Made by a program: the position numbers and the translations under genes. A stretch of DNA of 50,932 nucleotides from NCBI GenBank assembly GCA_017394405.1, contig JAFPYW010000020.1:1-50932 (forward strand). The letters run 5' to 3'. Position 1 is the stretch's first letter; every line of letters starts with the position of its first letter. The DNA comes from Alphaproteobacteria bacterium (GTDB lineage: Bacteria > Pseudomonadota > Alphaproteobacteria > CAAHEQ01 > UBA3637). This document shows, piece by piece, positions 7,637 through 25,645 of this stretch. Below the pieces are notes generated by a model. The model saw nothing but the letters and a program-made list of their open reading frames with translations, did not search any database and was not told the DNA's origin.

Positions 7637-7646
7637 TACATCCTCC

Positions 7647-10600: not shown

Positions 10601-13600
10601 TCAATTTCTTATCAGCATCCATCACATAATCATTCATCATGGCGGTACCAACTTGCTTTGTGCTGTTGTCGCGATACACGGTTCCATCCAAATTTAACCC
10701 ACCGACTTCACCATCATCTCGCAAGTTACGCACATATAAAGAACCTGTCCGCAAACGACCATTTAGGGCCCCATTTTCCATTGTGTAATCCGGCGCCAAT
10801 GCCACACCTAAATTCCGACCACTAACAGCCATAACGGCACCCGATTCCGTCACAATACCGCTTTGACGAATATCTTCGTGCATAGAGGGCGTTCCCAATG
10901 GCACATAGCCACCGACAATTGCATTATTTTCGCCCAACACACGATTATCCAAACTGACACGACCAACAACTTCCGTGCTATTCATAATACGACCATCAAT
11001 GGCCGTCCAGCCCAACATTTGTCCAGCGCCACCGACAGCAATACCTTCACGCAATACCCGACCAACGGAAGACAGATCATTATTCCATACATATCCTTCG
11101 GCACCGACCACAAAGTCCGTCAGCCCGTTTGCACCGTAAACAGCACCATCTGCAGAAACACGTCCGATATACGCTCCTGAACGATCCACCACTGTTCCTT
11201 TATGAATCACCGAACCGATTACATAACCATCGGCATCAAACACCAATCCGTTTTGACCCAAACGACCAATATCTTTTCCTTCGGCATCAACCACTTCGCC
11301 ACGGAAAGTAACCCAACCCAACAATTCATGAGCCGTACTCATCACCAAACCGATCGGCTCCGCAACACCACCCAAACGACCTTCTGTTGTTAAAACTGTT
11401 CCAAACGGTGACACAACCCCCAAATAATTGCCGGCTTTATCATATGCCGCTAATTGATAAGACATTGTATCCGTTTTACTGGTTGCCCTTGGAACAATCG
11501 TTCCAGACATACCCTCGCCAGACACAACTACAGACATCGGCATCCACACACGACCAATCACACGATTATCTGGATTCACAACCAAACCATTACCCAAAAC
11601 AGATCCAATACGGGTTCCTTTTGACATAACATCCCCATTGGCATTTGCCCAACCAACCTGAGTTCCCATCGCGGATAACACCACGCCTGTCGGAACAGCC
11701 GCACCAATCAAGACATTGTTCGTACTATACAACGCGCCATCAGACATCACCTTTCCAACGACTTGACCTGTTTCATCCACAACCTGTCCATCCAAACTCA
11801 ACATACCGACGAATTCACCATTCAATCCAACAAATGTTGTATTTTGTGGAATCAAAGAACCCAAAACTTGATTTCCAGCCATATTCAAAACTGTTAAATC
11901 TGGCATCACGCGCCCCAATTCATCTCCGTTGGCATTTAACGCTTCACCCAATAAACGATTATAGGTACCCAAAACAGCACCAGTTACTGAAACAATTACC
12001 CCATTAGGCGGCATAAAACCAATCATGTGGCCCTGTTTATCGGAAGCCCATCCGTTAAACGCCACTGAGCCAACTTCTTCATTACGTTCATTGAAACATT
12101 TGCCAGACATCGCCATCAATCCAGACGGCAAACCATTATCACCCAATACAACGCCCTTTTCCAAATTCATTGCATCTTGTAACAAGCCGCTGGGATCCAC
12201 ACAATCAATCACTTTTCCTTCGCGATCAATCACACGACCATCATAGCGAATATAACCCTTCACGCTGCCATCTGGAGAAATTGCCACACCAACCGGTGTA
12301 ATAGCCCCTATTTCTACGCCATTGGCTTTGACAGCACGCTTTTGCATATTCACGCAACCAACTGACATTCCCTCTTTATTCACAACCTGACCGGTCAAGG
12401 AAATCAGGCCCATTAAACGACACCCTTCAGCCATTACTGTTCCCCGTGGCACCACCACACCAATCACTTTGTTTTTGTTATTCAAAACATATCCATCAGC
12501 CCGCACAACGCCCGTGGGTTGAACATCTTGGGACATAACTTGACCATCTGGATAAACCGATCCTAACACATTGCAAGCATTCCCCACGACTTTTCCTTTT
12601 TGCAAAACTCCCCCGATAGTTTTCTTGCCAGTTGTCACCATACCATCTGGACCCGCAAAACCAATCATTGTTTCTTTGTTAGAAACACCCTTTCCCTCAG
12701 AATTGATAAAGCCAACGATAACTCCTTTAACATCCGCGATCAAACCTTGACGCACAACGGCCCCCAATTCATTCAACTTGCCATCAACAACCGTGCCATC
12801 CGGCATAACACGACCGACAATTTGACCATAATTATCTTTCACTTGTCCATTTAACGCCACAACACCATACGATGTGCCATTTGTTCCAACCGCCACACCT
12901 TGTGGCACAATACGACCCAACAATGTACCATTGGAATCTGTCACAAAACCATTTTGTTGCAAATGTCCCACGACTTTATTGTCGCCATTGATAATATCAC
13001 CCGTTGGTAAAATAGCACCCAACAAATTACCCGACAAATCTAATGTATAACCCCAATCACGAACAGTACCAATTTCTGAGCCAGTACTATCCACAACAGA
13101 TCCATCAACACGTGGATACCCAATTGTATCGCCGTGATTATCTATGACTTTAATTGAATTATTTTCAATCAAAAACTTACCAATAACAGTTCCTTGGGCA
13201 TTTATAACAGATGTCACCGGTAACGCAGCACCCAATACATTCAACTCTGTATCAACCAATGTGTCATCACCCAACAAACGGCCCAATGTAACACCATCTT
13301 TTTCCACCGTTCTGTATTCTGTGACTTCTCCCAAGTATTCGTTTTTCAAACTTAAAGCAATCCGTTTTGGTTCCACGACCACGCCCGGAACGATATTACC
13401 TTTTTCGTCACGCAACAATTCACCATCAACGGTTTCACCATCTTTCAGATCACGAGTTTCTCCATTGGCCAACATTACTTGCCGACGATGTTTTGTACCC
13501 TTTTCCTTTTCTACCTCACAACAAACACATTCTTTAGAGTCTGTAGAACTCCCCTTTAATTGAATTTGGGTGCGTTCATCCCTCAACACACGAGGATTAT

Positions 13601-14105: not shown

Positions 14106-14114
14106 AGCACCCTA

Positions 14115-15815
14115 CTATTTAATTCTGACGACCGAGCACGAATATCCGCGTTTTCCCAATTTCCGGCAAAGCGTATCTGCCGTCTCAGCATCTTTCACAG
14201 TTCCCGCACGCAAACGGAACAAATCCATTGTTTCACCATTTGCCGATGTATCAACAGAATAGTACGGATCATATCCGGCCAACAAGTCCCCATTTGCACG
14301 ATATACTTGCTCCCACAATTTTTCCAACTCGGCAATTTCACCGGCTGTACCAAATTCTAGAGCAATATTTTCTTTTGCAGCAACCGGCAACACAACACCT
14401 TTGTCGGCTTGAATAGCATCAATTTCAGCGCGAGCCGCACTGGATTGTCTGACTGATGCAGGAATCGCCGCCATTGGTTGCCATGCAGCTGTACCGCCAC
14501 AACGATTAGCCCCTAATGTGTCATCACAATATGGGTTGATACCACCCGTTGCATACGGATTATATCCACCAGTTTCTGTCGCATAAGCCCCATTTCCAGC
14601 ACCTAATTGAGCCGGTGCATACGGATTATTACCATGCAACACAGAACCTCCTCTGTATGTCACTTCCGGATTCGGCATATCTGGCGCACGCACAGGTAAT
14701 TGAGTGTTATAAGCATAGGGTTGAGAATTAAACGCGCTGTAATCCGTATATTCCAAACCAGCGGCAGGATCACGACGCATCTTGATGCAAATAACTTTGC
14801 GCCCATTTCTCAAAACCAAATCACCAATGGCTTCTACTACAATCAATCGGCTGTTTGGACCACGCGTTCTAAAGCCCACCGGCACCTCTGAATCTTGTTG
14901 CAATAAACTGACCACTGGACGTTGTGTCATTGTCAATGCTTTCGGGCCCAAATCAATGTAGGTGAAAATGTTATCACGCCACACATTATCCGGCGCAATA
15001 TCAACATCATCCGGATTTGGCAAGAACATATCCAAGTCAAATTTCAATGCTTCTGGATCCATTGGAACCGTATTTTTCCATTCATTGGCTGTATTGATTT
15101 GCAACGCACTTGTTGTCGAACGTGCAGTTGTTGCACCCATCATATTCAAAGACGGCATAGAGGCCATTGTGGAAACCCCATCACCCTCGCGCAACTGGCC
15201 ACCATCAGCCACAGGCGTCCAACGTGGCCCCACCAAAACATCTACCACCGATTGAGTAATTTTGTCTGTGTTGAAGGTTTCACTGCGCAAATAGAAAACG
15301 TATCTATTTCCGGAACGACCAAACATCACCATGTTACTATCCACACCCACATAGGTTGGATCTGCATACAACAACATTGAGTTTGGCGCCACAATATCCC
15401 CACCGAAAGATTCCGGCGCACCAATATGAACTTTTTCAATCAATTCCCATGACGGCAAATTGATCAAAGTCATCATTCCTTCTCGAACACGCACAGGCAA
15501 CACAGTATCTGGCGTCCAGTTATATTTGGAATACCCTGGCTTTGTTTGTCCGGAACCCATGTGAGCCAATGGATTATTCCACGCTTTTTGTTGCATTCCC
15601 AATCCTTGTCCCATTGAACGCAACCAATCCATATCCACTTCATCATATTGGCCGGATGCGTTAGCAAGAGCGTCAGCTAATTGTGCCGCTTGTGGATCGG
15701 TAGGAACATTTGTTTGTGCAAAAAGAGGGGAAACAAAAACACCCAAAACACCCGTCAATACGGGTAAAACTCCCTTTAATAAAAACTTTTTACTCACCGG
15801 TTCCTCCTTTTTCAT
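14115..15815 (-). CDS. virB9: VirB9-like T4SS outer-membrane core protein with C-terminal SPOR domain (566 aa)
   Basis: Signal peptide ..LTGVLGVFVSPLFA. VirB9/CagX-type N-domain (YNWTPDTVLPVRVREGMMTLINLP..RYVFYLRSE) and C-domain (IFTYIDLGPKALTMTQRPVVSLLQQDSEVPVGFRTRGPNSRLIVVEAIGDLVLRNGRKVICIKM). This is followed by a ~130-aa Y/N/P/G-rich linker and the SPOR-like end. Confidence 0.8.
   Translation of the reverse strand: MKKEEPVSKKFLLKGVLPVLTGVLGVFVSPLFAQTNVPTDPQAAQLADALANASGQYDEVDMDWLRSMGQGLGMQQKAWNNPLAHMGSGQTKPGYSKYNWTPDTVLPVRVREGMMTLINLPSWELIEKVHIGAPESFGGDIVAPNSMLLYADPTYVGVDSNMVMFGRSGNRYVFYLRSETFNTDKITQSVVDVLVGPRWTPVADGGQLREGDGVSTMASMPSLNMMGATTARSTTSALQINTANEWKNTVPMDPEALKFDLDMFLPNPDDVDIAPDNVWRDNIFTYIDLGPKALTMTQRPVVSLLQQDSEVPVGFRTRGPNSRLIVVEAIGDLVLRNGRKVICIKMRRDPAAGLEYTDYSAFNSQPYAYNTQLPVRAPDMPNPEVTYRGGSVLHGNNPYAPAQLGAGNGAYATETGGYNPYATGGINPYCDDTLGANRCGGTAAWQPMAAIPASVRQSSAARAEIDAIQADKGVVLPVAAKENIALEFGTAGEIAELEKLWEQVYRANGDLLAGYDPYYSVDTSANGETMDLFRLRAGTVKDAETADTLCRKLGKRGYSCSVVRIK
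14118..14369 (-). other. SPOR-type peptidoglycan-binding domain at the VirB9 C-terminus (aa ~483-566)
   Basis: NIALEFGTAGEIAELEKLWEQVYRANGDLLAGYDPYYSVDTSANGETMDLFRLRAGTVKDAETADTLCRKLGKRGYSCSVVRIK follows the alphaproteobacterial SPOR pattern (..A...W..l....gdlL.g..p......G...yRLR.G......A..lC..L...G..C.vv). Confidence 0.65.
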
Positions 15816-15936
15816 AGACTCTACTTTATTCCAATGTATCTAAAAATAAAACGAAAGTCCAGTAAAAAGTGGCAATTTTTTCAGTTTTTTTAAAAAAAAA
15901 TATCTTGGAGAAAAAGTTGAAGACAAAAAACGACTT

Positions 15937-16650
15937 TTATGGTCTTATTTCTTCAGGTTCCGAAGGCTCCAAACCAAAACTTAAAACCTTAAATCCAAGT
16001 GGGTTTTGCAAGATTTGAGAACGGCTGCGCGGTTCTCCATCTGGACGGAATGCAACTTTAGCACGAGCAATCCACCAAGTTTCTTCCGGCACAGACGAAA
16101 CGCGGTTCATTTGACTAATTTTAATTTTGGCTTCATAGACATCCCCATCATTTGGACCCGTTGCAGTCTGAGTTTTATTCACGCGCAAAATTTTAACATC
16201 CCGTGTCATATTGTCTTCTTGGGCCATTTTTCCCAATCTTACCAATTCTTGTTTTTTGAATTCGTCATACACCGTATTAGAGCTCATTTGTTCCACGATA
16301 CCACCGGGCCCCCAACGTGTTTCTTGTTCTTGCCAGTTGGATCCGATACCATATCGCGCCAACAAATATTGACGTACATAAGACCCTTTTAATGTATCGG
16401 AATCTAATACTTCCTGGGCAGGACGCACCACATCAATAATTTGCTCATTTTTATCTTTTGTTGAAATATAAAACGGCTGAACACGCAACACAGGAGTCAC
16501 ATTAGCCAAGGCAATCAGCAAAACAATATCACAAATAATGGCCAAAACTACCATCACCACAAAAGCCCGAGACATCCATAAATAACGCTCCTCCTGCAAA
16601 ACTTCGCGGGAAGAAACAGAATGTTTCTGTGTGTTTTCAGATGGTGCCAT
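15937..16650 (-). CDS. virB8: VirB8 family T4SS protein (copy b, 237 aa)
   Basis: Bitopic layout: cytoplasmic N-terminus, TM (AFVVMVVLAIICDIVLLIALANV), then an NTF2-like VirB8 region (LRVQPFYI...YVRQYLLARYGIGSNWQEQETRWGPGGIVEQMSSNTVYDEF). GAGGAGG RBS. Confidence 0.8.
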   Translation of the reverse strand: MAPSENTQKHSVSSREVLQEERYLWMSRAFVVMVVLAIICDIVLLIALANVTPVLRVQPFYISTKDKNEQIIDVVRPAQEVLDSDTLKGSYVRQYLLARYGIGSNWQEQETRWGPGGIVEQMSSNTVYDEFKKQELVRLGKMAQEDNMTRDVKILRVNKTQTATGPNDGDVYEAKIKISQMNRVSSVPEETWWIARAKVAFRPDGEPRSRSQILQNPLGFKVLSFGLEPSEPEEIRP

Positions 16651-16664
16651 AGCCCCTCCTCAAC

Positions 16665-16841
16665 TTACGAAAACCACTCAGGCAATTCCGGTGCTTTTTT
16701 CAATTCCAAACAGGCACAAGGAGATTTTTTCAACTCCGAATATTCAGGACCAATGCCCACCGGCATTTTTTCATAAACCGAGTTACATGCGGCCAAAATC
16801 AAGCCACAAAGCCCTAAAAACAAACAAATATACGTTTTCAT
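16665..16841 (-). CDS. virB7: small lipoprotein in the VirB7 position (RvhB7-like)
   Basis: MKTYICLFLGLCGLILAAC has a lipobox, and the mature peptide is ~40 aa. It sits between two virB8 copies, as in rvh islands. Assignment is by size, lipobox and position only. I prefer the ATG at 16841 over the GTG at 16847. Confidence 0.55.
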   Translation of the reverse strand: MKTYICLFLGLCGLILAACNSVYEKMPVGIGPEYSELKKSPCACLELKKAPELPEWFS

Positions 16842-16911
16842 AGTCACCCTTTCTGTTATCTCATTTTCCCTTACTTTATCACATTAAATCAAAATATCAA
16901 CAAAAAAATGA

Positions 16912-17523
16912 TTATTTTGTCACATTTGATTCATCCACACTGGTTATAATAAAGCCATAAGGATTGGAAAGAACGCTACCCATCAAACGTCTGGCAGGCA
17001 TATAACCAAAGTGCAGCACAACGCTTCGTGTCGATTTGCGCCATGTTCCACGTCCCGTGGCTTCATATAAGTCAAAAATAACGGCATAATAATTTTCTTT
17101 ACGTGTTGCACTAATAATATCAACAACCTTTTGTTGGGAATTTTCATCCGCCGAAGTGTAAATATCTTCCGAAGGAGCAAATTCATCATATACTTTTGGG
17201 GCAGACAAAAAGGCCACAATGCCATTTGGCCCCCAACGACGGGTCATTTCTACAGAATCCGAAATAAAAGAATAACGCATTGTCACATACAAACGAACCA
17301 GTGCATCATCTACTGTTTGACGTTGTAACGCGCTCACTGGAATAACCGTAATTAAATCGCGAAACTCACCAGAATCTAAACGAAAAACTTGTGCAAGCAC
17401 ATTGACCTGTAAAACCGCCTGAAACAAAGTAACAACAATAAAAAATGTCACAATCCAAACGGCCCAACATACCACCATCAGTAATCGTGTCAAATGCCAT
17501 GCTGTCGTTTTGTGTTCAGTCAT
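16912..17523 (-). CDS. virB8: VirB8 family T4SS protein (copy a, 203 aa)
   Basis: TM (LLMVVCWAVWIVTFFIVVTLF), then VRLYVTMRYSFISDSVEMTRRWGPNGIVAFLSAPKVYDEF, which parallels copy b (R-W-G-P-x-G-I-V..Y-D-E-F). Confidence 0.8.
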   Translation of the reverse strand: MTEHKTTAWHLTRLLMVVCWAVWIVTFFIVVTLFQAVLQVNVLAQVFRLDSGEFRDLITVIPVSALQRQTVDDALVRLYVTMRYSFISDSVEMTRRWGPNGIVAFLSAPKVYDEFAPSEDIYTSADENSQQKVVDIISATRKENYYAVIFDLYEATGRGTWRKSTRSVVLHFGYMPARRLMGSVLSNPYGFIITSVDESNVTK

Positions 17524-17539: not shown

Positions 17540-18691
17540 TTAGCAAGAACCGAGATCAATCTCCCGATTCACGACATTAGCATCAAAATCGCTGTATGCT
17601 TGATCAATCATTTTGTTCAACATCGCTTTGTTGGCGCGTTTTTCCGCCATTCTTCTATCCACTTCAGACGCATTTGTTTCTGTCATATAAACCTCACCAT
17701 CCGCGTCTTTTTCCAAAGCCGTTACAATAATTTGTTGGCGTGCCTGTGGCGTCATTTGATCTGCTACAGCTATATCCGGAAATACATCGGGAAATTGTTC
17801 CTGAATTTCTCCAAATACCGCCTGTTTATTTTGAGAACGAGCCGCCCTGCGCTCAACCAAATCAGGATTAGCTGCATCTTGAGCATCTAATTGGCTGATA
17901 TAGGCCTTCGCCTCGTCCAAATATTGTTGTTTCAATGTCTTTAATTTTTTATGCACAGCCGTTACTTTCGTGCCGCGAATAAAATCTAACTCTGGCTCTT
18001 GAACATCAAATTCTGCCAATTTAGAAACGAACATTTGTTGCATTTTCATAAATTGTTCATCCGCCTGAGTTTGTCCGATTTGGGCGTGTGTCAATCCTTT
18101 TTCAGCCATATTCATTTCTTCTAACAAGTTGTAGTCGCTGTTACGAGCCAAGGCCTCTGGTGCCTCATCCGAGGAACGATCCACAACATCACCACCCCAC
18201 GTTCTGGCATTTTTGAAAACATCTTTCATCAAATCATTTTCAATATCACGCTTTTCGGCAAGTTTTGCGTTTTGCTCGGAAATGGAGAGCGGCACAATGC
18301 TGTCTGGATGTGCTTTTTTATCACTTTTCAGATCTGCGGTCCGCGTCTTATAGGCCTCACGTACCTTTTTTAACATTTCACCTGCATTCTTAAAACGTCC
18401 GGAAAAGCGTTTTTCGCCACATTGGTTCAATGCCTTCATATACTTTTCCATCTTTCCTGTTGTTTTACGCAATACACGAACGGTTTCCGCTGTCTTTTCC
18501 AATTCTGGCATTTGGTTCATTAAATTATGAACAGCCAACGCCTTTTCCAAGGCCTCGTTCCGCGTTGCCAACAATTGTCGGCGCGCTTTGACTTCAATTT
18601 TTATAACAGGCGGAGCCCCGTGGCGCACAGCACCCACAGGCGAACTCACCAAAACAAATCCACAAACACATGCTAATAAAATATGCTTCAT
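17540..18691 (-). CDS. exported coiled-coil protein, unknown family (383 aa; T4SS-linked block member 6)
   Basis: Signal peptide MKHILLACVCGFVLVSSPVGA. The rest is K/E/A/Q-rich helical sequence ending in ..DLGSC. There is a 16-nt gap to virB8a. Confidence 0.75.
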   Translation of the reverse strand: MKHILLACVCGFVLVSSPVGAVRHGAPPVIKIEVKARRQLLATRNEALEKALAVHNLMNQMPELEKTAETVRVLRKTTGKMEKYMKALNQCGEKRFSGRFKNAGEMLKKVREAYKTRTADLKSDKKAHPDSIVPLSISEQNAKLAEKRDIENDLMKDVFKNARTWGGDVVDRSSDEAPEALARNSDYNLLEEMNMAEKGLTHAQIGQTQADEQFMKMQQMFVSKLAEFDVQEPELDFIRGTKVTAVHKKLKTLKQQYLDEAKAYISQLDAQDAANPDLVERRAARSQNKQAVFGEIQEQFPDVFPDIAVADQMTPQARQQIIVTALEKDADGEVYMTETNASEVDRRMAEKRANKAMLNKMIDQAYSDFDANVVNREIDLGSC

Positions 18692-18694
18692 GTC

Positions 18695-19939
18695 CTAATC
18701 TCCCACTGTTGAATTTGTATCCAAAGGAACCTCTGATGTCAATGGCCCATCATCATCAGAATCTGTCACTGGGTTTTCCGAAATACGATCAAAGTTCAAT
18801 TCCAACGCCTCTGAACGTAATTTCAACCGAGCAGCAACAACATTCATCTTTAATTCCGTTAAAGCATCATATAATACCCGACGAGATGCCGCCGTATTCA
18901 ATGCTTGCGGTTTTGTACCATATTCTGCGTCAATTAATCCGTCAGCTTCGGACAATTCTTTTAAGGATTGTTTCAACTGCATAGCCGTTGCCAAAGCCCG
19001 AATAGAACGTTGCTGTGCCTTATAACGCATCGTGTAGTTTTCAACCGAGTTACTAGTCAAAGAACGTTGATCATTCACCAATGTTTCGGCACGATATTCC
19101 ATCAACTCACGCGGAGAAGCAGAAGAAGCATCTTTCAGACCTTCATATTCCTTGGAATCAAATTTCATCAATCCAAACTTTTGTGATTTAACGGCCACAT
19201 CCCCCATAATTTGGACGATCTTGTTTCTATTTGGCGGGCCAACCCATTGGTCTGTCACGTGGCCTTCTTCACCGGCAAAACTGGCCAAGATCTTGTTGGC
19301 TTCAGCCAAGAACATATCCGTTGCAATACGCACGGCAGACGTCATCATAGACATCAAGTTCGGAGCTGTCGGCAACAGCGGCGCATAAGTCATTTCGTAT
19401 GTTGCAACACATACTGCTGCATTAGGATCCGTTTCCACCAAGAAAGTATGTGTCGTTCCCGTCACGGGATCAGGTACCACCACATCCTCAAAACAAGCAG
19501 CAAATGATGCCTGATAACACTCTGGATAACACAACGCCGCCGCCAATGTACAAGAGGCCATACACGAAGCCGTCAGAGCCGAAAATCCCGCATAGTTCGG
19601 GCAATTAACCTCTTTCCCTTTAACTTGTACACTCGTTGTTCCCCATAAACCATCCCAAGCGCTTGCTAATGTTTCGCCTAAAACAGATGTATTGATGAAA
19701 AATCCCGCAACGGTGGCCACAGCACCAGCCGCCATATTGATTGCAGCCGCTTGATCATTTTTCTTTGATTTTTGAGTTCCGGATCCTTTACTACTGGCAT
19801 CAGCACTTGTTGATTTAGCCGCATTTGAGGCCGCTGTTGAAGCATTATCTACACCCCGCGAAACACTGATGTCGGCATTGGCATTAAACGACGCCAACAG
19901 AACAGATCCCGCACAAATCAAAACACTTAACGTTCTCAT
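18695..19939 (-). CDS. exported Cys-rich protein, unknown family (414 aa; block member 5)
   Basis: AAGGAGG RBS and signal peptide MRTLSVLICAGSVLLASFNANA. It has an S/A/K-rich spacer, a second hydrophobic stretch AAAINMAAGAVATVAGFFINTSVLG, and a Cys cluster NCPNYAGFSALTASCMASCTLAAALCYPECYQASFAAC. The C-terminus is helical with an acidic tail. Confidence 0.75.
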   Translation of the reverse strand: MRTLSVLICAGSVLLASFNANADISVSRGVDNASTAASNAAKSTSADASSKGSGTQKSKKNDQAAAINMAAGAVATVAGFFINTSVLGETLASAWDGLWGTTSVQVKGKEVNCPNYAGFSALTASCMASCTLAAALCYPECYQASFAACFEDVVVPDPVTGTTHTFLVETDPNAAVCVATYEMTYAPLLPTAPNLMSMMTSAVRIATDMFLAEANKILASFAGEEGHVTDQWVGPPNRNKIVQIMGDVAVKSQKFGLMKFDSKEYEGLKDASSASPRELMEYRAETLVNDQRSLTSNSVENYTMRYKAQQRSIRALATAMQLKQSLKELSEADGLIDAEYGTKPQALNTAASRRVLYDALTELKMNVVAARLKLRSEALELNFDRISENPVTDSDDDGPLTSEVPLDTNSTVGD

Positions 19940-19948
19940 AATGCCTCC

Positions 19949-20791
19949 TTATTTCTTTTCATTGTTGTTGGCGGCGGCATAATTGCTGCTACCTCCAGTC
20001 CAACTTGTTGCATCCGGTTTGCTTTCGTGTTGCAAATCCGATGGTGGCGTTTCATCCATTAAAATTACCGGCTGGTATGTCAAAAACTTGGCCGCATCCA
20101 ATTCCATCAATTCAATTTGCAAGGCAATATCCACGATCAACGCTTTATTGACGGCTTTCCATGTTTGGTCAATACCAGAAATCACACCGATTGTTCCGTT
20201 AGCATTGATGTCCGCCGTAACAGCATCCATATCGGTTGCCAAATTCATTTGTGTTTCATAGGCCAACCGCACATAAGCATCAGAAATCGTTTTCAAATAA
20301 TCCTCACGATTTTTCTTGACCTTATCAACTTCATCTTGTGTCAATGTGCTTTTATTGGGTAAAAAGAACAAATCTAAAATTGCTTGTTTTGTATCGCCTT
20401 TACCACCATCAATTTTATTGTTCAATGGCGCATAGGGTGTATATTTTCCCGATAAAATCTGATCTTTCTCAATTAAATGATCATAGGCCGTAATATCCAA
20501 ACCGCTGGCTGGATCACCAGTACCTTCATTGACTTGGTAAGAAGTATCACCCTCTGCCAACGCACCAACTTCTTGTTGTTTCACATTGACTTCAGCAATT
20601 TGCACAGGCTCTTCACCCAAAGAAAGCAACGACAACACGGCACCGGTTGCATTTCGAATAGGGTCGGTGGTTGTTGGAACGACCGGCTTCAAATCCTGTA
20701 TTGGTGGAGCAGGACAAATTGCTTTAGCAACGCCGGCACACATCAATGTGGATAAGACCACAACACCTAAAATCTTACTTTTTGTCATCAT
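19949..20791 (-). CDS. exported protein, unknown family (~280 aa; block member 4)
   Basis: The GGAGG-spaced ATG at 20791 gives the signal peptide MMTKSKILGVVVLSTLMCAGVAKA. The C-terminal module is DKVKKNREDYLKTISDAYVRLAYETQ...ALIVDIALQIELMELDAAKFL. Confidence 0.75.
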   Translation of the reverse strand: MMTKSKILGVVVLSTLMCAGVAKAICPAPPIQDLKPVVPTTTDPIRNATGAVLSLLSLGEEPVQIAEVNVKQQEVGALAEGDTSYQVNEGTGDPASGLDITAYDHLIEKDQILSGKYTPYAPLNNKIDGGKGDTKQAILDLFFLPNKSTLTQDEVDKVKKNREDYLKTISDAYVRLAYETQMNLATDMDAVTADINANGTIGVISGIDQTWKAVNKALIVDIALQIELMELDAAKFLTYQPVILMDETPPSDLQHESKPDATSWTGGSSNYAAANNNEKK

Positions 20792-21614
20792 CAGACCCTC
20801 CAGTAATTTCTTCACTCAATTCAACTTCCTCTGTTCCTTCTGTTGCCAAATTGCGATAGGATTGAGCCGTTAAATCTTTTGATTGCAACAAAATAATTGT
20901 CGGCACCCGTTGTGAAGCATATACAGATAAATCACCCATACCTGCAATAAACTCACGCAATGTCGTCATACCATTTAACGAAGACACCAATTCATTTAAT
21001 TCTTTGTATTCCGTATCCATTTGTCCAAAGAAAGCATCTGCTTCGGCGATGGCACTACTTGTTGCTGTTGCTAACTCTTCATTTTGACGTGCTTTAGCAC
21101 ATTCAATCGGATCACATTGATCGGCTGTTCCATCAGCACATTTACAATCTTTGTTGGCTTCGGCACCATCTTGAGCAAAAGCAATTTTAGCAATCTCAGT
21201 TTGAACACTTTCCAAAGAAACCTTTTCTTTATCTTCAATCAATTTGATGGCGCTGTCAGGCACATCCATAGCGGCTTTTTCGGCCTCTTCTGCCATGGCC
21301 GCCCCTTCTTCTTCGGTGGTCAAATCGCATCCCGTATTTCCGGTGGCTGAACGACCACAATGGCCACGATCTTGTTGCATACCGATATTCTTTTCCAATT
21401 GATCAGAACCGGCACTGGCATCAATTTCCAATTTTTTCAATTTTTCACCGGCCGCAGACACTGCATATTCCAACAAGGCCCCGATATAATCGGTCAGCAA
21501 ACCAATGTTAAAAAAACCGTGTTTAATCGGCCACGCGCTCGAAAGAGCATGACTCGGCAACGCGGTTCCCAACATGACTAGAAAAACAAAAACAAGTTTC
21601 AACTGGCGCATCAT
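20775..21614 (-). CDS. exported protein, unknown family (279 aa; block member 3)
   Basis: AGGAGGAC RBS and signal peptide MMRQLKLVFVFLVMLGTALPSHA. Cys pairs (GHCGRSATGNTGC, KDCKCADGTADQCDPIEC) and an acidic tail ..EEITGGSDDDKK. Confidence 0.75.
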   Translation of the reverse strand: MMRQLKLVFVFLVMLGTALPSHALSSAWPIKHGFFNIGLLTDYIGALLEYAVSAAGEKLKKLEIDASAGSDQLEKNIGMQQDRGHCGRSATGNTGCDLTTEEEGAAMAEEAEKAAMDVPDSAIKLIEDKEKVSLESVQTEIAKIAFAQDGAEANKDCKCADGTADQCDPIECAKARQNEELATATSSAIAEADAFFGQMDTEYKELNELVSSLNGMTTLREFIAGMGDLSVYASQRVPTIILLQSKDLTAQSYRNLATEGTEEVELSEEITGGSDDDKK

Positions 21615-21620
21615 GTCCTC

Positions 21621-22547
21621 CTATTTCACTTCCATCAAGGCCGCAGCCGCATCATTGGCCACCTGTTGCCCCTGTACCATATTTGCTGTATTCAAACGTT
21701 GAGCCAACCCCAAATCTAAGCCCGTCAGCACTTTAATGTTAGCGCTTTCGCTTTTTCCTGTACCGACATAACTTTTCATTGTATTGGCAAAATTCTTTTG
21801 ATCTGCCGCAACCGTTCTCATTAAATAAGAACGCGCAATTCCGGCTGTTGCTGTTTTTTGCAAATGCACGACCTTACGATTTTTTTGAACCTTTAACAAT
21901 TCCGCTTCACTCAAATCGGACGGATTGACGCCACTGGCCCCAGCCGTTGAGGTCGGAATTTCAATTTCTTTGCCATCTGCCCCTTTAATTTTGGTTGTTC
22001 CACCATCTGATGTGGTTCCAAAGCCATCCTGAATTGTGGGCATAGCACCAACAATTTCGTCCGCCTTCTTCAAAACCGTGCCAGAAGGATCAGCCAACGC
22101 CGGCAAACCACTATTGTTTAATGAGGCCACATGAACTTCTGTTTCATCCAAGAACATACCTTCGGTACCCTCTTCAGCCAATTCTTCCAATCCACCGATT
22201 TTACGCACAGCGGCTTGATAATGGTCTTTTAATCCTGTCCATTCCACTTCACGTTCGCCCGCTTTTGCCAAATTCAACGCATCAACAACAATGGATGCGG
22301 CATCCGTGTTCCAAGAACCGATACCTGGCATTTTAACATTTGTCATCCACCAACAAAACAACGCTGGACAACCATGCAAGTTTGTGAACATCGTTATACC
22401 AGCTGATACGATGCTGACACCAGCCATCGCAATTGTATAGGCCTTCTGCGCACTGGCCATATTGGCCTTTGCCGGTTGAGGAGCAAACAAACATGTCGTT
22501 CCCAATAATGCAGCTCCACACAAAGCACTGATTACTTTATTACTCAT
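21621..22547 (-). CDS. exported protein, unknown family (308 aa; block member 2)
   Basis: ATGA start/stop overlap with the upstream gene. Signal peptide ..LCGAALLGTTCLFAPQPAKA, second hydrophobic stretch AYTIAMAGVSIVSAGITMF, then HGCPALFCWW. The C-terminal module is LKVQKNRKVVHLQKTATAGIARSYL...LDLGLAQRLNTANMVQGQQVANDAAAALMEV. Confidence 0.75.
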   Translation of the reverse strand: MSNKVISALCGAALLGTTCLFAPQPAKANMASAQKAYTIAMAGVSIVSAGITMFTNLHGCPALFCWWMTNVKMPGIGSWNTDAASIVVDALNLAKAGEREVEWTGLKDHYQAAVRKIGGLEELAEEGTEGMFLDETEVHVASLNNSGLPALADPSGTVLKKADEIVGAMPTIQDGFGTTSDGGTTKIKGADGKEIEIPTSTAGASGVNPSDLSEAELLKVQKNRKVVHLQKTATAGIARSYLMRTVAADQKNFANTMKSYVGTGKSESANIKVLTGLDLGLAQRLNTANMVQGQQVANDAAAALMEVK

Positions 22548-25384
22548 TTGTTATCTCCTTCCCCATTATTGTCACCATCCGTTGATCCAGCGCTTGGTGG
22601 AGTCACATCTTGAGCATTTAACAATGACGCACCCTGCACACCCATCTGAACTGCGGACAACGCGGCACCACGCAAAGTTTCTAATAACACATAACGTCCA
22701 ACGTCTTGCACCAAACCGAACGAGCCCGTTTCAGTCGGCGGATTTTGGGCATTAGCAAAATCAACCAAGGCCTTTGCCCGATCCATAAATGCATTGGAAA
22801 TCGCGTTCATTCCTTCGGAAATCAACACGCCAGCATTAGCATATTGAGCCAACAATTTTTGACGACGAGATTGAATTTCTTGGATGTACCCAGCTTGCTC
22901 TGGTGTCAATTCATCGCCACCATCATCATCGGTATCAGAATCCTCAGTATTTTCATCATCATTTGTATTGTTATAACCCAAGCCGCTGGTCGTCATACCG
23001 GCCTCAAACGTGGCATACAAAGGATCTTCTTTCTTTTTTTCCTCTGTTTCCGTTTTCTTCACGGTTGTGCTCAACAAATCCAAATCAATTTGAGCGGCTT
23101 GCAACAATTGTTGAGTCAAGGCAGCAGCGCCGGCAGCCGTTTTACCCAACTGAGCCATATCAATATCAGCCAATTCGGTGGCATCTTCTGCTGCCACAGC
23201 CTCACCGATATCACCGGCCTGGACAATAACTTCTTTGTTTTCATTAACCTTGTTATCGCTTTTTTCGTTGGCTAAAATTTCTAAAGCCGTCTGAACAACA
23301 TCCCACACCTTTAATGTTTGTGGAATCTGTGGCACGGAATCGCCTTGTTGCGTAGCCAAATCTTTATTAGCATCTTCCAACGCCCCATTGGCCGCACTCA
23401 TCGCAGCACCATCATTTTTGCACTGCTCTTCATTATTATTCAAGTAATTGGCCTGATTCAACAAATCGTTCATTTTTTCGGATTGATCAATCTTGCCCAT
23501 TAAATCGTCATTTCCTTTGGCACCCGCACGCATGGCATCGTAATCATAGGAGCCATCCGGTTTGAATACCTCGGCAACGCCAGCATCACGTAACGCCCCC
23601 TTCATTTGAGCATCCGCAACACCAGCACCAAATTTCAAATCACGAACTAACGATTCATTGGAGGTTGTGTCTGGATGGAACTCCGGTTGCACCTTGTTTG
23701 CCGCGTCAGCAATGGCACTACGAAATTCATCAGATGTTGTTTTACCAGATAACAAGGCACTACCCAACGCACTATCTTTACCAATGCCGGCCGCAGCCAA
23801 ATGTTGCGCTGTCCGATCCGCGACAGCACCTTGAAGCGCCGTAGCATCTGTCACACGTTGTGACGCATTTTTCAAAGCATCTGTTTGTTGTTTTAATAAT
23901 TTAGAATTAGCCTCTTTTAATTCCGCTTCGCGTTCCTTGATTTGCTCCTTCAATGCCGATTTTTCGGCACCGGATGCACCTTTTAATTGCTCGCGCAATC
24001 CCGTCAATTCTTCATTCAATGCATTGACATGATCTTTTGTCGCGCTGATTAAAGCCCCATCTGCCTTTGAAATCTGAGCACTCTTATCCAAATTGATAAC
24101 CGCATCAGCCACCTTGTTATCAGCATCAGAGTTTGATCCCAATTTTGTGATGTTGCCATTTTTATCTATATTGATACCAAAGACTTTTCCCAATTTGTCA
24201 TTATCTTCACCGGACAAAGTAAACACAGATCCGCCATCCTTTGTCGGAGTTCGATCCAAATTAAACAGCGCATCCAAACCCAGGGCTTTTCCCCGTTCGC
24301 TGGAAATAACACCAGTATTGGGATCCGTAGTAGAAATCTTATTCTTAAAACTATCAAGGTTTTGCTTCGCCCACGACCTCACATTATCCCAAAAACCCGG
24401 ACCCTTTTCCTTTGGCGCCTCGGTCTTTGGCGCCTCGGTCTTTGGCGCTTCGATCTTTCCATCATATACCTTCTTAACATCCTCCGGCATATTATAGTAA
24501 CCCAATTCATTATTGACCTGGTGAGCCGCCATTTCACGCTCTTCTGCACTTAAATTTGGATCAAGTGCCTTACGAATATTTTCCTGCAATGTCTCATTAC
24601 TTTTTGCATTATAGATTCTTTGAACGTCATCCGGTAAATTGTAGTATCCGATCTCGCTATTCAACCGAGCAGCCGCGGCCTCCCTTTCAGACATTGGCAA
24701 ACTTGTATTGCGTACAATATCTATATCTTTGGCATTTGGTGTTGCCGCTGGGGTTGTACCAGGTGCTGGTGATTCCGCACCCACAGCATTCCTTGCGGCA
24801 GTAAGTGCTCGCCCTGCATTTAATCTCCTAACAAGGGAGTCATTACCTGCATTACCATAAGTTCCAGTTATATTGCCGTCTTTATCCCTTACCGTTACCT
24901 GAGTAGGCACACCATCCTCATTAATGATAAAAGTATCTGTCCCCCCGGCAATGTTTGGATGTACCTCTGTACGCTCACCGGCAGATGTGACGGCCGATCC
25001 GGATCCTGCCCTCTGTGCATAAACTCCAGTATATGCGCCCATATTAACTTGGTTTGTCGCGGGATTGTAATCACCAGAAACCTGTCTACCATTTACTGTT
25101 GCTGTATATCTTCCATTTTTGGAATCAAATTTTATGTCCTTTGCTCCTGGATGTAAGGTTCGAACCGTTGATGCCGCCACATCAAGCGAATACATCGGCT
25201 GAGTGGTCGCGGTCTTACCAGCGCCTGTGGATGCTGACGATTTCGGCGAATTTTTGAGATATTGCGCATACGCAGGATTTCTCATAGCCCCTATGGCAAT
25301 TGCTTCTTCTCGGGTAATCGCCCACACATTAGACGTGCTCACCAAAATGGTTCCCAGCAACAAAACCTTCACAAAATTGCGCAT
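22544..25384 (-). CDS. large exported coiled-coil/repeat protein, unknown family (946 aa; block member 1)
   Basis: GGAGG RBS 5 nt upstream and signal peptide MRNFVKVLLLGTILVSTSNVWA. It has an internal ~32-aa duplication (LNSEIGYYNLPDDVQRIYNAK / VNNELGYYNMPEDVKKVYDGK), EAPKT x3, long K/E/A/Q-rich helical regions and an acidic D/E/T/N segment. The C-terminal module is IQEIQSRRQKLLAQYANAGVLISEGMNAISNAF... Confidence 0.8.
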   Translation of the reverse strand: MRNFVKVLLLGTILVSTSNVWAITREEAIAIGAMRNPAYAQYLKNSPKSSASTGAGKTATTQPMYSLDVAASTVRTLHPGAKDIKFDSKNGRYTATVNGRQVSGDYNPATNQVNMGAYTGVYAQRAGSGSAVTSAGERTEVHPNIAGGTDTFIINEDGVPTQVTVRDKDGNITGTYGNAGNDSLVRRLNAGRALTAARNAVGAESPAPGTTPAATPNAKDIDIVRNTSLPMSEREAAAARLNSEIGYYNLPDDVQRIYNAKSNETLQENIRKALDPNLSAEEREMAAHQVNNELGYYNMPEDVKKVYDGKIEAPKTEAPKTEAPKEKGPGFWDNVRSWAKQNLDSFKNKISTTDPNTGVISSERGKALGLDALFNLDRTPTKDGGSVFTLSGEDNDKLGKVFGINIDKNGNITKLGSNSDADNKVADAVINLDKSAQISKADGALISATKDHVNALNEELTGLREQLKGASGAEKSALKEQIKEREAELKEANSKLLKQQTDALKNASQRVTDATALQGAVADRTAQHLAAAGIGKDSALGSALLSGKTTSDEFRSAIADAANKVQPEFHPDTTSNESLVRDLKFGAGVADAQMKGALRDAGVAEVFKPDGSYDYDAMRAGAKGNDDLMGKIDQSEKMNDLLNQANYLNNNEEQCKNDGAAMSAANGALEDANKDLATQQGDSVPQIPQTLKVWDVVQTALEILANEKSDNKVNENKEVIVQAGDIGEAVAAEDATELADIDMAQLGKTAAGAAALTQQLLQAAQIDLDLLSTTVKKTETEEKKKEDPLYATFEAGMTTSGLGYNNTNDDENTEDSDTDDDGGDELTPEQAGYIQEIQSRRQKLLAQYANAGVLISEGMNAISNAFMDRAKALVDFANAQNPPTETGSFGLVQDVGRYVLLETLRGAALSAVQMGVQGASLLNAQDVTPPSAGSTDGDNNGEGDNK
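24411..24455 (-). repeat. 15-bp tandem repeat x3 (encodes EAPKT EAPKT EAPKE)
   Basis: The plus strand reads tttggcgcctcggtc / tttggcgcctcggtc / tttggcgcttcgatc. Two copies are identical and the third has 2 mismatches. It is in-frame inside the 946-aa gene. Confidence 0.9.
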
Positions 25385-25419: not shown

Positions 25420-25448
25420 ACTTTACATACTTTTTTTATGCTTTGCAA
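25420..25448 (-). promoter_or_regulatory. candidate sigma70-type promoter for the T4SS-linked block
   Basis: The minus strand reads TTGCAA - 17 nt (agcataaaaaaagtatg) - TAAAGT, about 36 nt upstream of the ATG at 25384, in an A/T-rich context. Sequence pattern only. Confidence 0.35.
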
Positions 25449-25488: not shown

Positions 25489-25515
25489 TAAAAAAATCCC
25501 CGTCGTTAAACGGGG
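25489..25515 (-). terminator. rho-independent terminator downstream of tRNA-Arg
   Basis: The minus strand reads CCCCGTTTAACGACGGGG (stem of ~6-7 bp) followed by ATTTTTTTAT, directly 3' of the tRNA. Confidence 0.65.
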
Positions 25516-25519
25516 AAAA

Positions 25520-25596: not shown

Positions 25597-25645
25597 AACG
25601 CCTTACATTATACTGCATTAAAGGCAAAACGTCAAGAAAAAACAC

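Follow-up and report, generated by a model that had tools for sequence, protein, structure and literature searches.

Organization of the locus

The window, by which we mean the whole 50,932-nucleotide stretch of DNA analyzed, carries six co-directional, closely packed ORFs on the minus strand between positions 17540 and 25384 (Table 1). From g946 to g383 the intergenic gaps are -4, +6, -17, +9 and +3 nt, and g383 is separated from virB8a by +16 nt. Five of the six genes have a ribosome-binding site (RBS) of the GGAG/GGAGG type, that of g383 being weaker (GGGAG). An alternative GTG start of g280 at 20815 would give a protein of 288 aa. A first-pass annotation had described the packing (gaps of -17 to +16 nt), GGAGG-type sites before most genes, and a block leading directly into virB8-virB7-virB8-virB9-virB10-virB11. 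The ORFs and measured gaps reproduce the packing, the RBS pattern is as described, and Pfam and a lipobox ORF agree on the gene order downstream.

Table 1. Positions of the block genes, the adjoining T4SS core and flanking signals in the window
Feature	Position	Strand	Basis and remarks
tRNA-Arg(TCT)	25520-25596		upstream of hairpin
Terminator-like hairpin + T-run	25497..25516	-	8-bp stem, 5 GC pairs, T7 tail; end of tRNA-Arg unit
Promoter-like site TTGCAA-N17-TAAAGT	25420..25448	-	sequence reading; probable operon promoter
g946	22544..25384	-	ORF + RBS; 946 aa, predicted exported
g946 C-terminal helical module	22598..22900	-	~aa 829-929; hhalign to g280 module
g308	21621..22547	-	ORF; 308 aa, predicted exported
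g279	20775..21614	-	ORF; 279 aa, predicted exported, acidic, 6 Cys
g280	19949..20791	-	ORF, ATG with GGAGG; 280 aa, predicted exported
g414	18695..19939	-	ORF; 414 aa, predicted exported
g383	17540..18691	-	ORF; 383 aa, predicted exported, adjoins virB8a
T4SS core (virB8a, virB7-like, virB8b, virB9 (+SPOR), virB10, virB11)	6653..17523	-	Pfam, lipobox ORF, synteny
VirB8 (virB8a)	16912-17523	-	Pfam
VirB7-like lipoprotein	16665-16847	-	lipobox ORF; 60 aa
VirB8 (virB8b)	15937-16650	-	Pfam
VirB9 + SPOR domain	14115-15815	-	Pfam
VirB10	7647-14105	-	Pfam; 2152 aa, eight beta-flower repeats
VirB11	6653-7705	-	Pfam

The synteny of the core genes is kept in all related loci. virB2, virB3, virB4 and virB6 were not found within the window, in none of the lineages examined is virB11 followed by a virD4 coupling-protein gene, and PDB searches with VirB8b and VirB9 detected no relative by sequence. 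The earlier label "rvh-type" captures part of this arrangement: as in the rvh T4SS of Rickettsiales, the genes are chromosomal, VirB8 duplicates flank a VirB7 lipoprotein and are followed by virB9-virB10-virB11, the layout is split, with the other virB genes absent from the locus, and no virB5 is recognizable. The label is nevertheless too loose. In Rickettsia, virB8a is on the opposite strand beside virB9a, and virD4 follows virB11 (PMC2653234), whereas here all genes are co-directional, virB9 is single and no virD4 is adjacent. In addition, VirB10 has about four times the length, a SPOR domain is part of VirB9, and the hosts are gut/rumen MAGs, not Rickettsiales.

The probable operon promoter scores only 8/12 against the consensus, which is below the threshold of the scan, and was therefore missed by it. 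It is kept as TTGC[AT][AT]-N17-TA[AGC]AGT in two other species (loci L064 and L065), where the spacer DNA around it is otherwise divergent and both hexamers and their spacing are conserved. The annotation had placed this promoter behind a terminator. A hairpin is indeed found there, but it ends a tRNA-Arg unit that had been overlooked, and the tRNA gene has a promoter of its own (11/12); in L064 and L065 the equivalent position is taken by the infC terminator. The gaps of -17 to +16 nt and the conserved promoter before g946 fit a single transcript that would continue into the virB genes. A second promoter-like site (17493-17466, 10/12 with TG) lies within the 5' end of virB8a.

The encoded proteins

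A hydrophobic N-terminal segment and an AXA-type site, scored by a heuristic only, are present in 6/6 proteins and are kept in their orthologues, in line with the signal peptides assigned earlier. The proteins had also been called unplaceable in any known family: Pfam and NCBIfam indeed give no match for any of the six, and a PDB sequence search with the g280 and g383 families gave nothing significant. The dN/dS ratio is 0.14 for the C-terminal part of g946, 0.15 for g308, 0.17 for g279, 0.14 for g280, 0.21 for g414 and 0.11 for g383; the corresponding ratios are 0.22-0.24 in the pair of virB8 genes and 0.03 in virB9. With values of 0.11-0.21 and synteny in about 70 loci, the six are real genes under purifying selection, not chance ORFs.

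Conservation across the block proteins is weighted to the C-terminus. In g946, found in 21 loci, a variable N-terminal part of ~700 aa precedes a conserved C-terminal domain, identity to orthologues being 0.42 over the last 100 aa vs 0.13 elsewhere; in g414 the N-terminal part is hydrophobic and Cys-rich, and the C-terminal half is conserved. g308 has an extra hydrophobic segment at aa 36-54. The most widespread paralogue is g280 (84 family clusters among 1.84e9 representatives). Its AF2 model is all-alpha, with a helical hairpin formed by H152-197 and H200-239 (pLDDT 72-87), it is duplicated again in three loci, and variants of 390-820 aa exist with large variable N-terminal extensions. Ser/Gly/Thr-rich expansions are seen in distant homologues, a few of which have teneurin-type EGF domains. 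g383, the most constrained of the six, occurs in 73 loci, always as the gene adjoining virB8a, and has three invariant residues (C10, C91 and one C-terminal Cys). Its AF2 model is all-helical (pLDDT 59), and Foldseek matches it to generic coiled coils only.

Linkage to the T4SS and distribution

The comparison covered about 70 related loci, taken from MAGs of rumen and gut origin. Type-A loci keep the whole set of six genes in synteny, at 28-71% identity. Across metagenome and genome collections, the g280 and g383 homologues with enough context are without exception placed directly 5' of virB8a, and neither family was found anywhere else. The strict operon linkage of the block to the T4SS is thus as expected of the exported, T4SS-associated module proposed in the annotation, and homologues free of such linkage did not come to light. 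A trio of g280, a g414-type gene and g383 is constant across blocks, and its order is fixed in more than 50 species; gene number and content otherwise differ between lineages, from 4 to 7 genes, with repeated duplication. The block occurs in 53/65 species-level genomes. The remaining 12/65, a human-gut clade, have housekeeping genes at its position, so that the block is not universal to this type of T4SS. This sister clade has the same core operon, giant VirB10 included, indicating that the block is dispensable there or has been relocated.

One reading of these data, which we consider very improbable, is that the proteins are envelope or surface proteins unrelated to secretion that merely share the virB promoter. 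The tie of the proteins to the T4SS is one of gene position, the sister clade runs its virB operon without the block, and the promoter-like site inside virB8a would also suit such an arrangement. The exclusive position of the g280 and g383 families argues against it, as does the persistence of the block-virB8a adjacency in two upstream contexts, infC and folD, which is hard to explain without functional coupling.

Relationships among the block proteins

The annotation had seen a C-terminal layout shared by five of the proteins and had proposed a single diverged paralogous family. Profile comparisons (hhalign; reversed controls ≤6% overall, median 0.1%) uphold this for part of the block, and locate the similarity within the last 90-120 residues. 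The homology of g279 and g280 has good support in their sequence profiles (91.3%, E 9.7e-7, 119 columns; reversed control 0.0-0.1%). g279 equals the c21 and s5 families (96-98%), and in locus L014 the adjacent g280 and c21 genes match each other (iE 1.7e-8). g308 and the g946 C-terminus are probably relatives of this pair. g308 aligns with g279 at 32-44% (E 2-5e-4, up to 204 columns), with g280 at 6.6-9%, and with c22_232 by phmmer (iE 1.8e-4 over 140 aa); the g946 C-terminus aligns with g280 at 15-40% (E 3e-4 to 1.7e-3, 89-96 columns; reversed controls ≤0.3%). g414, which equals c14, s10 and s16 (85-97%), may be a further member, its match to g280 being weak (4.5%, E 0.009, 67 columns on the basic-patch helix). 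By the same profile comparison g383 has no link to the other five, and is a separate, unrelated family.

A possible distant relation to VirB5

Several observations on g280-type proteins suggest VirB5, the pointers from TrwJ, CagL and merged profiles being weak and independent of each other; each falls short of conventional significance. A profile of 66 g280-family sequences has TrwJ as its only PDB sequence match at E≤10 (E 0.077, covering the mature N-terminus). Among natural structures, Foldseek ranks CagL first against the g280 model (prob up to 0.82, TM 0.3-0.5), although at E 0.2-1, with a model of mean pLDDT 61, and with long helical bundles that match many unrelated proteins, de novo designs included. 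The merged g280+g279 profile aligns co-linearly with VirB5 over about 200 columns (27.9%, E 6.4e-4; reversed control 0.1%). The motif P[VI]xD stands just past the signal peptide in 11/52 g280-type proteins, in 10/10 reference VirB5 proteins and in 0-1 members of unrelated families; the strict motif is thus found in about a fifth of the family, and g280 of the window has TDP in place of PVxD. A Sec signal, a size of 230-300 aa and all-alpha content also agree with known VirB5 proteins (A. tumefaciens VirB5, pKM101 TraC and R388 TrwJ; 220-300 aa with long helices), and in both cases the genes precede virB7 and virB8 within the virB operon.

There are also differences. Curated VirB5, TrbJ and CagL models gave no match to the 66 family members even at E≤1. 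Canonical virB5 sits between virB4 and virB6, and the block lies upstream of virB8 instead. Several diverged paralogues are present here vs one gene, and g946 and the longer g280 variants have large N-terminal extensions. Searches by sequence or by fold can miss a VirB5; TraH of the F plasmid is such a case (10.64898/2026.07.31.741991). We consider it most likely that several block proteins are related, very remotely, to VirB5, the pilus-tip/adhesin subunit, and that the common ancestor of the g279/g280-type proteins was of VirB5 type, g280 being the best VirB5-like candidate among the paralogues. Of the three roles listed in the annotation, it is the VirB5-like one that has gained some evidence.

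Possible roles of the block

VirB5 caps the periplasmic stalk on VirB6, and its final place is the tip of the pilus or the surface of the cell, where it serves as an adhesin. The six unannotated genes would form the promoter-proximal part of a chromosomal T4SS operon of uncultured gut/rumen Alphaproteobacteria, and their products would be Sec-exported, mostly alpha-helical, lineage-specific extracytoplasmic accessory subunits. Our tentative preference is for an array in which diverged stalk/tip or adhesin subunits of VirB5-like type are joined by a new partner protein. g279, g280, g308 and the C-terminal domain of g946, which share a helical-hairpin module of ~100-120 residues, would descend by duplication and divergence from one ancestor of VirB5 type. 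After export, these conserved modules may bind the proteins to one another or to the stalk/core, whereas the poorly conserved N-terminal parts, which in relatives hold the low-complexity expansions and few EGF modules, would face outward and contact the target. g383, unrelated, always beside virB8a and the most constrained, could be a dedicated assembly or docking partner. In this reading the VirB5 ancestry, the location and the adhesin/tip role of the proteins are inferred.

Alternatively, the proteins could be periplasmic or outer-membrane scaffolds that enlarge the core, like Cag3 and CagM around CagX/CagY/CagT in H. pylori or DotC/DotD/DotH in Dot/Icm. The core is unusually large, with its giant VirB10 and SPOR-bearing VirB9; the genes for these exported, helical proteins are packed tightly together with virB8-virB10; and g383, the most constant virB8a neighbor, has no VirB5-like feature. 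As the Cag system shows, a core complex can include species-specific proteins (PMC12070742). Nonetheless, a scaffold is unlikely. The oversized VirB10 occurs both with and without the block, and the full core is equally present in the clade that lacks it, so the core does not depend on the block proteins, and the annotation's suggestion of a scaffold for an oversized VirB9/VirB10 is weakened. A gene number of 4 to 7 with repeated duplication would be unusual for symmetric ring components, and N-terminal hypervariability, low-complexity expansions and EGF modules suggest exposure, not a buried scaffold.

Comparison with known systems

In Bordetella, a single operon contains the ptx genes followed directly by ptl. 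The resemblance raises the rather improbable alternative that the block encodes secreted cargo, which would reach the periplasm by Sec and be released by the T4SS, as is pertussis toxin via Ptl. In both systems, several signal-peptide genes directly precede T4SS genes, with which they appear to be co-transcribed, and no VirB5 is recognized; the lack of virD4 after virB11 in the lineages examined fits a periplasmic loading route, and some members have eukaryote-like EGF modules. Ptx, however, consists of beta-rich AB5 toxin parts with an ADP-ribosyltransferase, whereas the block proteins are all-alpha and no enzymatic or toxin domain was found in any member. Repertoires of effectors are as a rule variable and dispersed; the trio's fixed membership and order, with dN/dS like that of the virB8 genes, resemble machine parts, and the weak similarities lead to structural VirB5/CagL.

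The VirB5-type array that we favor has closer parallels. CagY, the VirB10 homologue of the Cag system, is likewise giant and repeat-rich. CagH, CagI and CagL of H. pylori are also lineage-specific and encoded by adjoining genes that overlap, within a T4SS operon, with a common C-terminal motif and signal peptides predicted for CagI and CagL (PMC3164655; PMC12070742). Mutual C-terminal similarity is weak in both systems, and helical CagL, the top natural fold match of g280, is regarded as a VirB5 analogue. No sequence relation was found between the two sets; the shared element is a helical module of ~100 residues here and a terminal hexapeptide there, the block proteins have no RGD-type motif, and the hosts here are Alphaproteobacteria, apparently gut commensals.

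In the Trw system of Bartonella, trwJ (VirB5) is amplified and diversified, and there is no coupling protein (PMC2883598). In both systems a (putative) VirB5-type surface component has multiplied in tandem and diverged rapidly within an alphaproteobacterial T4SS locus, neither locus has a coupling-protein gene, and a model of variant surface forms for host-specific adhesion fits both. The Trw copies (trwJ-trwI-trwH, trwL) are recent and clearly recognizable as TrwJ paralogues, and homologues of VirB6 and VirB7 were amplified along with them, whereas the paralogues here are ancient, detectable at profile level only, VirB6 and VirB7 are not co-amplified, and the unrelated conserved partner g383 is present.

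Organization of the Block and the T4SS Core Genes

The six-gene block preceding virB8a is a clade-specific, previously unannotated accessory module of the T4SS. ORFs, gaps and Pfam assignments confirm that the six consecutive minus-strand genes are tightly spaced and run into the virB genes, as the first-pass annotation had described. Gaps from g946 to g383 are -4, +6, -17, +9 and +3 nt, with +16 nt between g383 and virB8a. A GGAG- or GGAGG-type site lies ahead of all six starts, that of g383 being the weakest. For g280, orthologue alignments speak for a start at 20791 (ATG, GGAGG upstream) rather than at 20815 (GTG).

Positions of the block genes, the T4SS core genes and associated features in the window
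Feature	Position	Strand	Description
g946	22544-25384	minus	946 aa ORF
g308	21621-22547	minus	308 aa ORF
g279	20775-21614	minus	279 aa ORF
g280	19949-20791	minus	280 aa ORF
g414	18695-19939	minus	414 aa ORF
g383	17540-18691	minus	383 aa ORF
virB8a (VirB8)	16912-17523	minus	Pfam
VirB7 equivalent	between both virB8 genes	minus	60-aa ORF with lipobox
virB8b (VirB8)	15937-16650	minus	Pfam
VirB9	14115-15815	minus	Pfam; C-terminal SPOR domain
VirB10	7647-14105	minus	Pfam; 2152 aa, eight 5-fold beta-flower repeats
VirB11	6653-7705	minus	Pfam
tRNA-Arg(TCT) with promoter and terminator	25497-25635	minus	between infC and block
tRNA-Arg(TCT) promoter	25635-25607	minus	11/12
tRNA-Arg(TCT) gene	25520-25596	minus	
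Hairpin ending the tRNA gene	25516-25497		
Putative block promoter	25448-25420		TTGCAA-N17-TAAAGT, 8/12
Promoter-like site in virB8a 5' end	17466-17493	minus	TTGACA-16-TATGTT with upstream TG, 10/12
lptF/G::lptD	35052-38284	plus	fusion

The eight VirB10 repeats (PF21785) precede its TrbI domain, and VirB10 measures 2100-2500 aa in every related locus, with the block present or absent. A literature search found no paper on beta-flower VirB10. The SPOR domain, which binds peptidoglycan, is unusual for VirB9. As listed, the virB11 ORF overlaps virB10 by 59 nt (7647-7705); similarity to its orthologues starts at residue 29, and the true start is probably a downstream codon. No virB2, virB3, virB4, virB6 or virD4 was found within the 50.9-kb window.

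All six block proteins have an N-terminal hydrophobic stretch and an AXA-type site by heuristic prediction, in agreement with the signal peptides assigned to them earlier, and these features are retained in the orthologues. One extra, moderately hydrophobic segment occurs in g308, and another in g414. The earlier statement that no block protein can be placed in a known family also holds: neither Pfam nor NCBIfam gave a match to any of the six, VirB5 models included. Family profiles of g280 and g383 gave nothing significant against PDB sequences, and Pfam and NCBIfam scans of 66 g280-type and 12 g383-type members revealed no recurring weak family. Since these databases cover none of them, new family models could well be built for the g280, g414-type and g383 proteins.

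Measured against L003, the closest related locus, dN/dS is 0.11-0.21 for the six block genes, 0.22-0.24 for the two virB8 genes and 0.03 for virB9; dS is near saturation, making the values approximate. The block genes are constrained, given their ratios. Protein identity to L003 is 63-71% for the block, 56% for VirB8a and VirB8b, 92% for VirB9 and 90% for VirB7. The block evolves fast compared with VirB9 and VirB11, and at about the rate of VirB8 and VirB10.

Distribution and Linkage to the T4SS

The block families are rare. Word-indexed searches of 5.8 billion proteins returned 4 for g383, itself included, and 15 for the g280 profile, and exhaustive hmmsearch of 1.84 billion representatives returned 84 clusters of g280 type. 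With VirB9 as the anchor, 55 metagenome loci were gathered and 106 species-representative genomes were found, 80 of which were retrieved. Nearly all hosts are labelled uncultured Alphaproteobacteria, from the gut of goat, yak, sheep, deer, buffalo, rabbit and human. Widespread in the guts of ruminants, rabbits and humans, the lineage is uncultured; no T4SS biology has been described for it, and our literature search found no described T4SS. Three records, labelled Lactobacillales or Holdemanella biformis (L124, L132 and L129), carry the same alphaproteobacterial locus and are probably mis-binned contigs in public MAGs.

In the window's arrangement (type A), infC is followed by g946-g308-g279-g280-g414-g383 and virB8a. 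In type B, folD is followed by seven signal-peptide genes, the last three g280-like, g414-like and g383-like (~530 aa), and then by virB8a. Further lineages have 4-7 block genes, with g280, a g414-type gene and g383 as the constant trio. Three loci (L098, L126 and L139) carry two g280-type genes per block, which indicates ongoing duplication in that family. Look-ups begun independently from g280 homologues reach the identical position, 5' of virB8a. Across the protein, metagenome and genome collections searched, no homologue distant from a T4SS was found; homologues found widely and lacking such linkage were the outcome that the first-pass annotation had named as counting against it. If the block proteins were functionally unrelated envelope proteins that happen to be co-transcribed, this exclusive linkage would be hard to explain, and we regard that account as very improbable.

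The block is present in 53 and absent from 12 genome loci with enough upstream sequence. The 12 form the most distant clade, from human gut, with VirB9 ~45% identical, and in them genes for a DEAD-box helicase and an esterase adjoin virB8a instead; the block was either lost or relocated. Block-negative loci (L145-L155, L030, L033-L039, L043, L056, L057) retain virB8-virB7-virB8-virB9-giant virB10-virB11. A tie between the block and VirB10 size was considered and rejected, as giant VirB10 occurs both with and without the block. The same observation weakens the earlier suggestion that the block proteins are a scaffold for the oversized VirB9 and VirB10. A scaffold of the core complex is unlikely, as loci lacking the block still have the giant core and block gene content turns over.

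Promoter and Co-transcription

The best promoter in a consensus scan (11/12) drives a tRNA-Arg(TCT) gene that ends in a hairpin; with its own promoter and terminator, this gene sits between infC and the block. The promoter proposed earlier for the block scores 8/12 and is absent from the consensus-scan list, yet two loci from other species, L064 and L065, keep TTGC[AT][AT]-N17-TA[AGC]AGT at equal distance to the RBS, behind a terminator-like hairpin. Their spacers between infC and the first block gene have no tRNA and are otherwise divergent in sequence. This conservation provides reasonable evidence that the promoter is real, and, as the tRNA is missing there, tRNA-Arg(TCT) is a lineage-specific insertion. 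A sequence scan found no convincing terminator among the six block genes or ahead of virB8a, and the block and virB genes are therefore likely to share one transcript. The promoter-like site at the start of virB8a, inside the gene, might serve the virB genes as an internal promoter.

Relationships among the Block Proteins

The paralogy is visible solely by profile-profile comparison on a dataset of ~70 loci. All-against-all BLASTP of the six window proteins gave nothing significant, hhalign of three-sequence profiles reached a maximum of 9%, too shallow for decision, and a deep g280 HMM did not match the other five window proteins. We assembled 492 block ORFs from ~73 loci; positional orthologues were pooled and signal peptides removed before the profiles were compared, and reversed-sequence controls gave a maximum of 6.1% and a median of 0.1%.

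Profile-profile comparisons among block protein families (scores are probabilities; c14, c21, s5, s10 and s16 are families from related loci)
Comparison	Score	E	Extent
g279 = c21 = s5	96-98%		positional equivalents
g414 = c14 = s10 = s16	85-97%		positional equivalents
g280-g279	91.3%	9.7e-7	119 columns, C-terminal
g279-g308	32-44%	2-5e-4	up to 204 columns
g280-g946 C-terminus	23-40%	3-9e-4	92-96 columns
g280-g308	6.6-9%	about 0.005	115 columns
g308-g946	5.8%	0.0065	98 columns
g280-g414	4.5%	0.009	67 columns, basic-patch helix
g383 vs any other family	0.5% or less		clean groups

Individual proteins provide further matches. Neighboring g280 and c21 genes in the related locus L014 match with an iE of 1.7e-8 over 160 aa; c22_232, a block protein of a related locus, is matched by the deep g280 HMM (2.9e-8) and by g308 (phmmer, 1.8e-4); and window g280 matches one g414-type protein (1.3e-5). 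A phmmer single-linkage merger of g279, g280 and g414 was discounted as partly a chaining artefact: its g280-g414 edges come from five proteins of the c14 position that chaining had drawn into the g280 cluster, and from low-complexity matches. Conservation is skewed to the C-terminus, strongly in g946 (0.42 vs 0.13 elsewhere) and also in g414.

AF2 models were made for g280 (15-sequence alignment) and g383 (4 sequences), both with pLDDT ~60. The g280 model (mean 61) is all-alpha, with short helices before a confident C-terminal hairpin of long antiparallel helices at 152-197 and 200-239 (pLDDT 72-87); these helices depict the shared module. By sequence comparison, the module of a basic patch and two helices is genuinely common to g280 and g279, probably extends to g308 and g946, and possibly to g414. 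Of the five proteins originally credited with a shared C-terminal layout, g280 and g279 thus stand, g308 and g946 are probable, and g414 is possible only. The omission of g383 from that layout matches its scores, and the proposal of one diverged paralogous family applies to part of the block, with g383 separate.

The g383 model is all-helical (pLDDT 59), and Foldseek returned generic coiled coils only. Across 12 diverse orthologues, g383 has invariant cysteines at C10, at C91 and at or beside the extreme C-terminus; C10 falls inside the hydrophobic core of the signal peptide.

Possible VirB5 Ancestry

VirB5 is the least conserved T4SS part and, to our knowledge, has been reported absent from rvh, from Ptl and, until 2026, from the F plasmid. 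As a pentamer, it rests on the stalk's VirB6 pentamer, and it is extruded at the tip of the pilus (PMC9259494). VirB5 is listed as missing in rvh systems (PMC2653234), and TraH of the F plasmid exemplifies its divergence beyond sequence and fold detection (10.64898/2026.07.31.741991).

The VirB5, TrbJ and CagL models of Pfam and NCBIfam gave zero matches at E<=1 to 66 g280-family members. The 66-sequence g280 profile (A9) had a single PDB match at E<=10, TrwJ (E 0.077), which is VirB5 in plasmid R388; their alignment extends beyond the signal peptide and takes in mature N-terminal sequence, GIPVFDGTRALDFVQQ. Type-B g280 proteins have WFVFDALRTAEFAIQ or WPVFDVMRTAEFAVQ right after the cleavage site. 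Among natural proteins, Foldseek ranks H. pylori CagL, an adhesin of VirB5-like kind, first for the g280 model, with several of its crystal forms matching (E 0.2-1, prob up to 0.82, TM 0.3-0.5), a score equalled by de novo helical bundles. A VirB5 reference profile of ten annotated plasmid genes scored 1.6% against g280 alone (N-terminus), 13.6% against g279 (C-terminal helices) and 27.9% against merged g280 and g279 (E 6.4e-4, co-linear over ~200 columns) in hhalign, with reversed controls at 0.1%. At the mature N-terminus of VirB5, PVxD and a helix-loop-helix are conserved. Behind the signal peptide, strict P[VI]xD is found in 11/52 g280-type proteins, 5/62 g414-type proteins and 10/10 VirB5 references, and in 0-1 members of every remaining block family; window g280 has TTTDPIRN at this position, not PVxD. 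VirB5 proteins have a signal peptide, about 220-250 aa and an elongated helical-bundle fold; size, signal peptide and helical content of g280-type proteins are compatible with VirB5.

The PDB, fold and profile matches all point to VirB5, as three weak, independent results of which none is conventionally significant. They lend some substance to the VirB5-like role proposed at the outset; membership in VirB5 is not established, because the signals are too weak by the usual standards and the curated VirB5 models do not match. Part of the block is a diverged paralogue family, for which VirB5 ancestry is plausible but unproven. Should these proteins be VirB5 derivatives, they would add about 500 sequences from roughly 70 loci on the range of VirB5's divergence and multiplication, and a heteromeric tip or stalk cap would become testable.

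Comparison with Known T4SSs and Possible Roles

The locus shares with rvh the VirB8-VirB7-VirB8 duplication, followed by virB9-virB10-virB11 (PMC2653234), and a split chromosomal layout. In rvh, virD4 is contiguous with virB11, and virB8a/virB9a are divergent, on the opposite strand (PMC2653234), whereas here all genes are co-directional, virB9 is single and there is no adjacent virD4. Beyond virB11, the window has a dUTPase gene, and no virD4-like ORF was found there in related loci. Expanded virB6 paralogues, along with virB3-virB4 on an islet of their own, are a further rvh trait; the window holds none of virB3, virB4 and virB6. VirB8b and VirB9 have no sequence-detectable relative in PDB. 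The likenesses make "rvh-like" a fair label for this gene order; "rvh-type", the original term, is not demonstrated.

The closest precedents are Bartonella Trw and the CagH/CagI/CagL module. In Trw, trwJ is amplified and diversified, and there is no coupling protein (PMC2883598). Unlike the tandem, recognizable trwJ copies co-amplified with trwI and trwH, the block paralogues are related at profile level only and include no VirB6 or VirB7 copies. CagH, CagI and CagL have contiguous, overlapping genes and a common C-terminal motif, are associated with the outer-membrane core complex and are required for pili (PMC3164655, PMC12070742). The block genes are likewise contiguous or overlapping (gaps -17 to +9 nt) and appear to share a C-terminal module (g279, g280, g308, g946), but this spans ~100 residues, whereas the Cag element is a terminal hexapeptide. 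Pfam, NCBIfam and PDB comparisons revealed no sequence relationship to CagH/CagI/CagL, the sub-threshold CagL fold match being the sole link. Ptx-Ptl, with AB5 subunits and an ADP-ribosyltransferase encoded upstream of the T4SS genes, differs in that the block has no toxin or enzyme domain and its modeled proteins (g280, g383) are predicted to be all-alpha. Sec-dependent cargo in the ptx-ptl fashion is accordingly improbable for the block: no protein has an enzymatic domain, and gene order is fixed across species.

The most likely reading, at somewhat less than an even chance, is that the block encodes a series of VirB5-derived subunits, of stalk, tip or adhesin type, with a dedicated partner. 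The conserved C-terminal modules would dock, and the variable N-terminal parts would be exposed, which fits the low-complexity expansions and teneurin-type EGF modules of distant homologues. Two of these g280 homologues, P0065 and P0053, have Cys-rich, EGF-type-looking modules, and one scanned g280-type member, presumably P0065, matches Pfam EGF_Teneurin (E 6e-12). Such modules imply that these proteins are extracellular and may contact a eukaryotic host. Rather doubtful as a whole is a heteromeric stalk cap or surface tip of four to six anciently diverged VirB5-derived paralogues and the new conserved partner g383, forming a modular, fast-evolving, Trw-like recognition or adhesion device, possibly without a coupling protein. 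If true, the device would be at work in Alphaproteobacteria of gut and rumen that are abundant but uncultured, and would exemplify a form that the "missing VirB5" of split, rvh-like systems can take. The presence of a dedicated exported module that diversifies rapidly, placed before a giant beta-flower VirB10, suggests contact between this lineage and other cells, be they host, protists or bacteria, which would alter the view of the host group.

The remaining window genes are housekeeping chromosome (infC, hpf, lptFG-lptD, surA, folD, lepA, recR, yebC, dnaA). The lptF/G::lptD fusion is one ORF of 1077-1078 aa in the related loci L059 and L062; in the window, a frameshift near 37690-37800 leaves ORFs of 880 and 170 aa and marks a pseudogene or else an error in the assembly. 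As such, the fusion is unusual.
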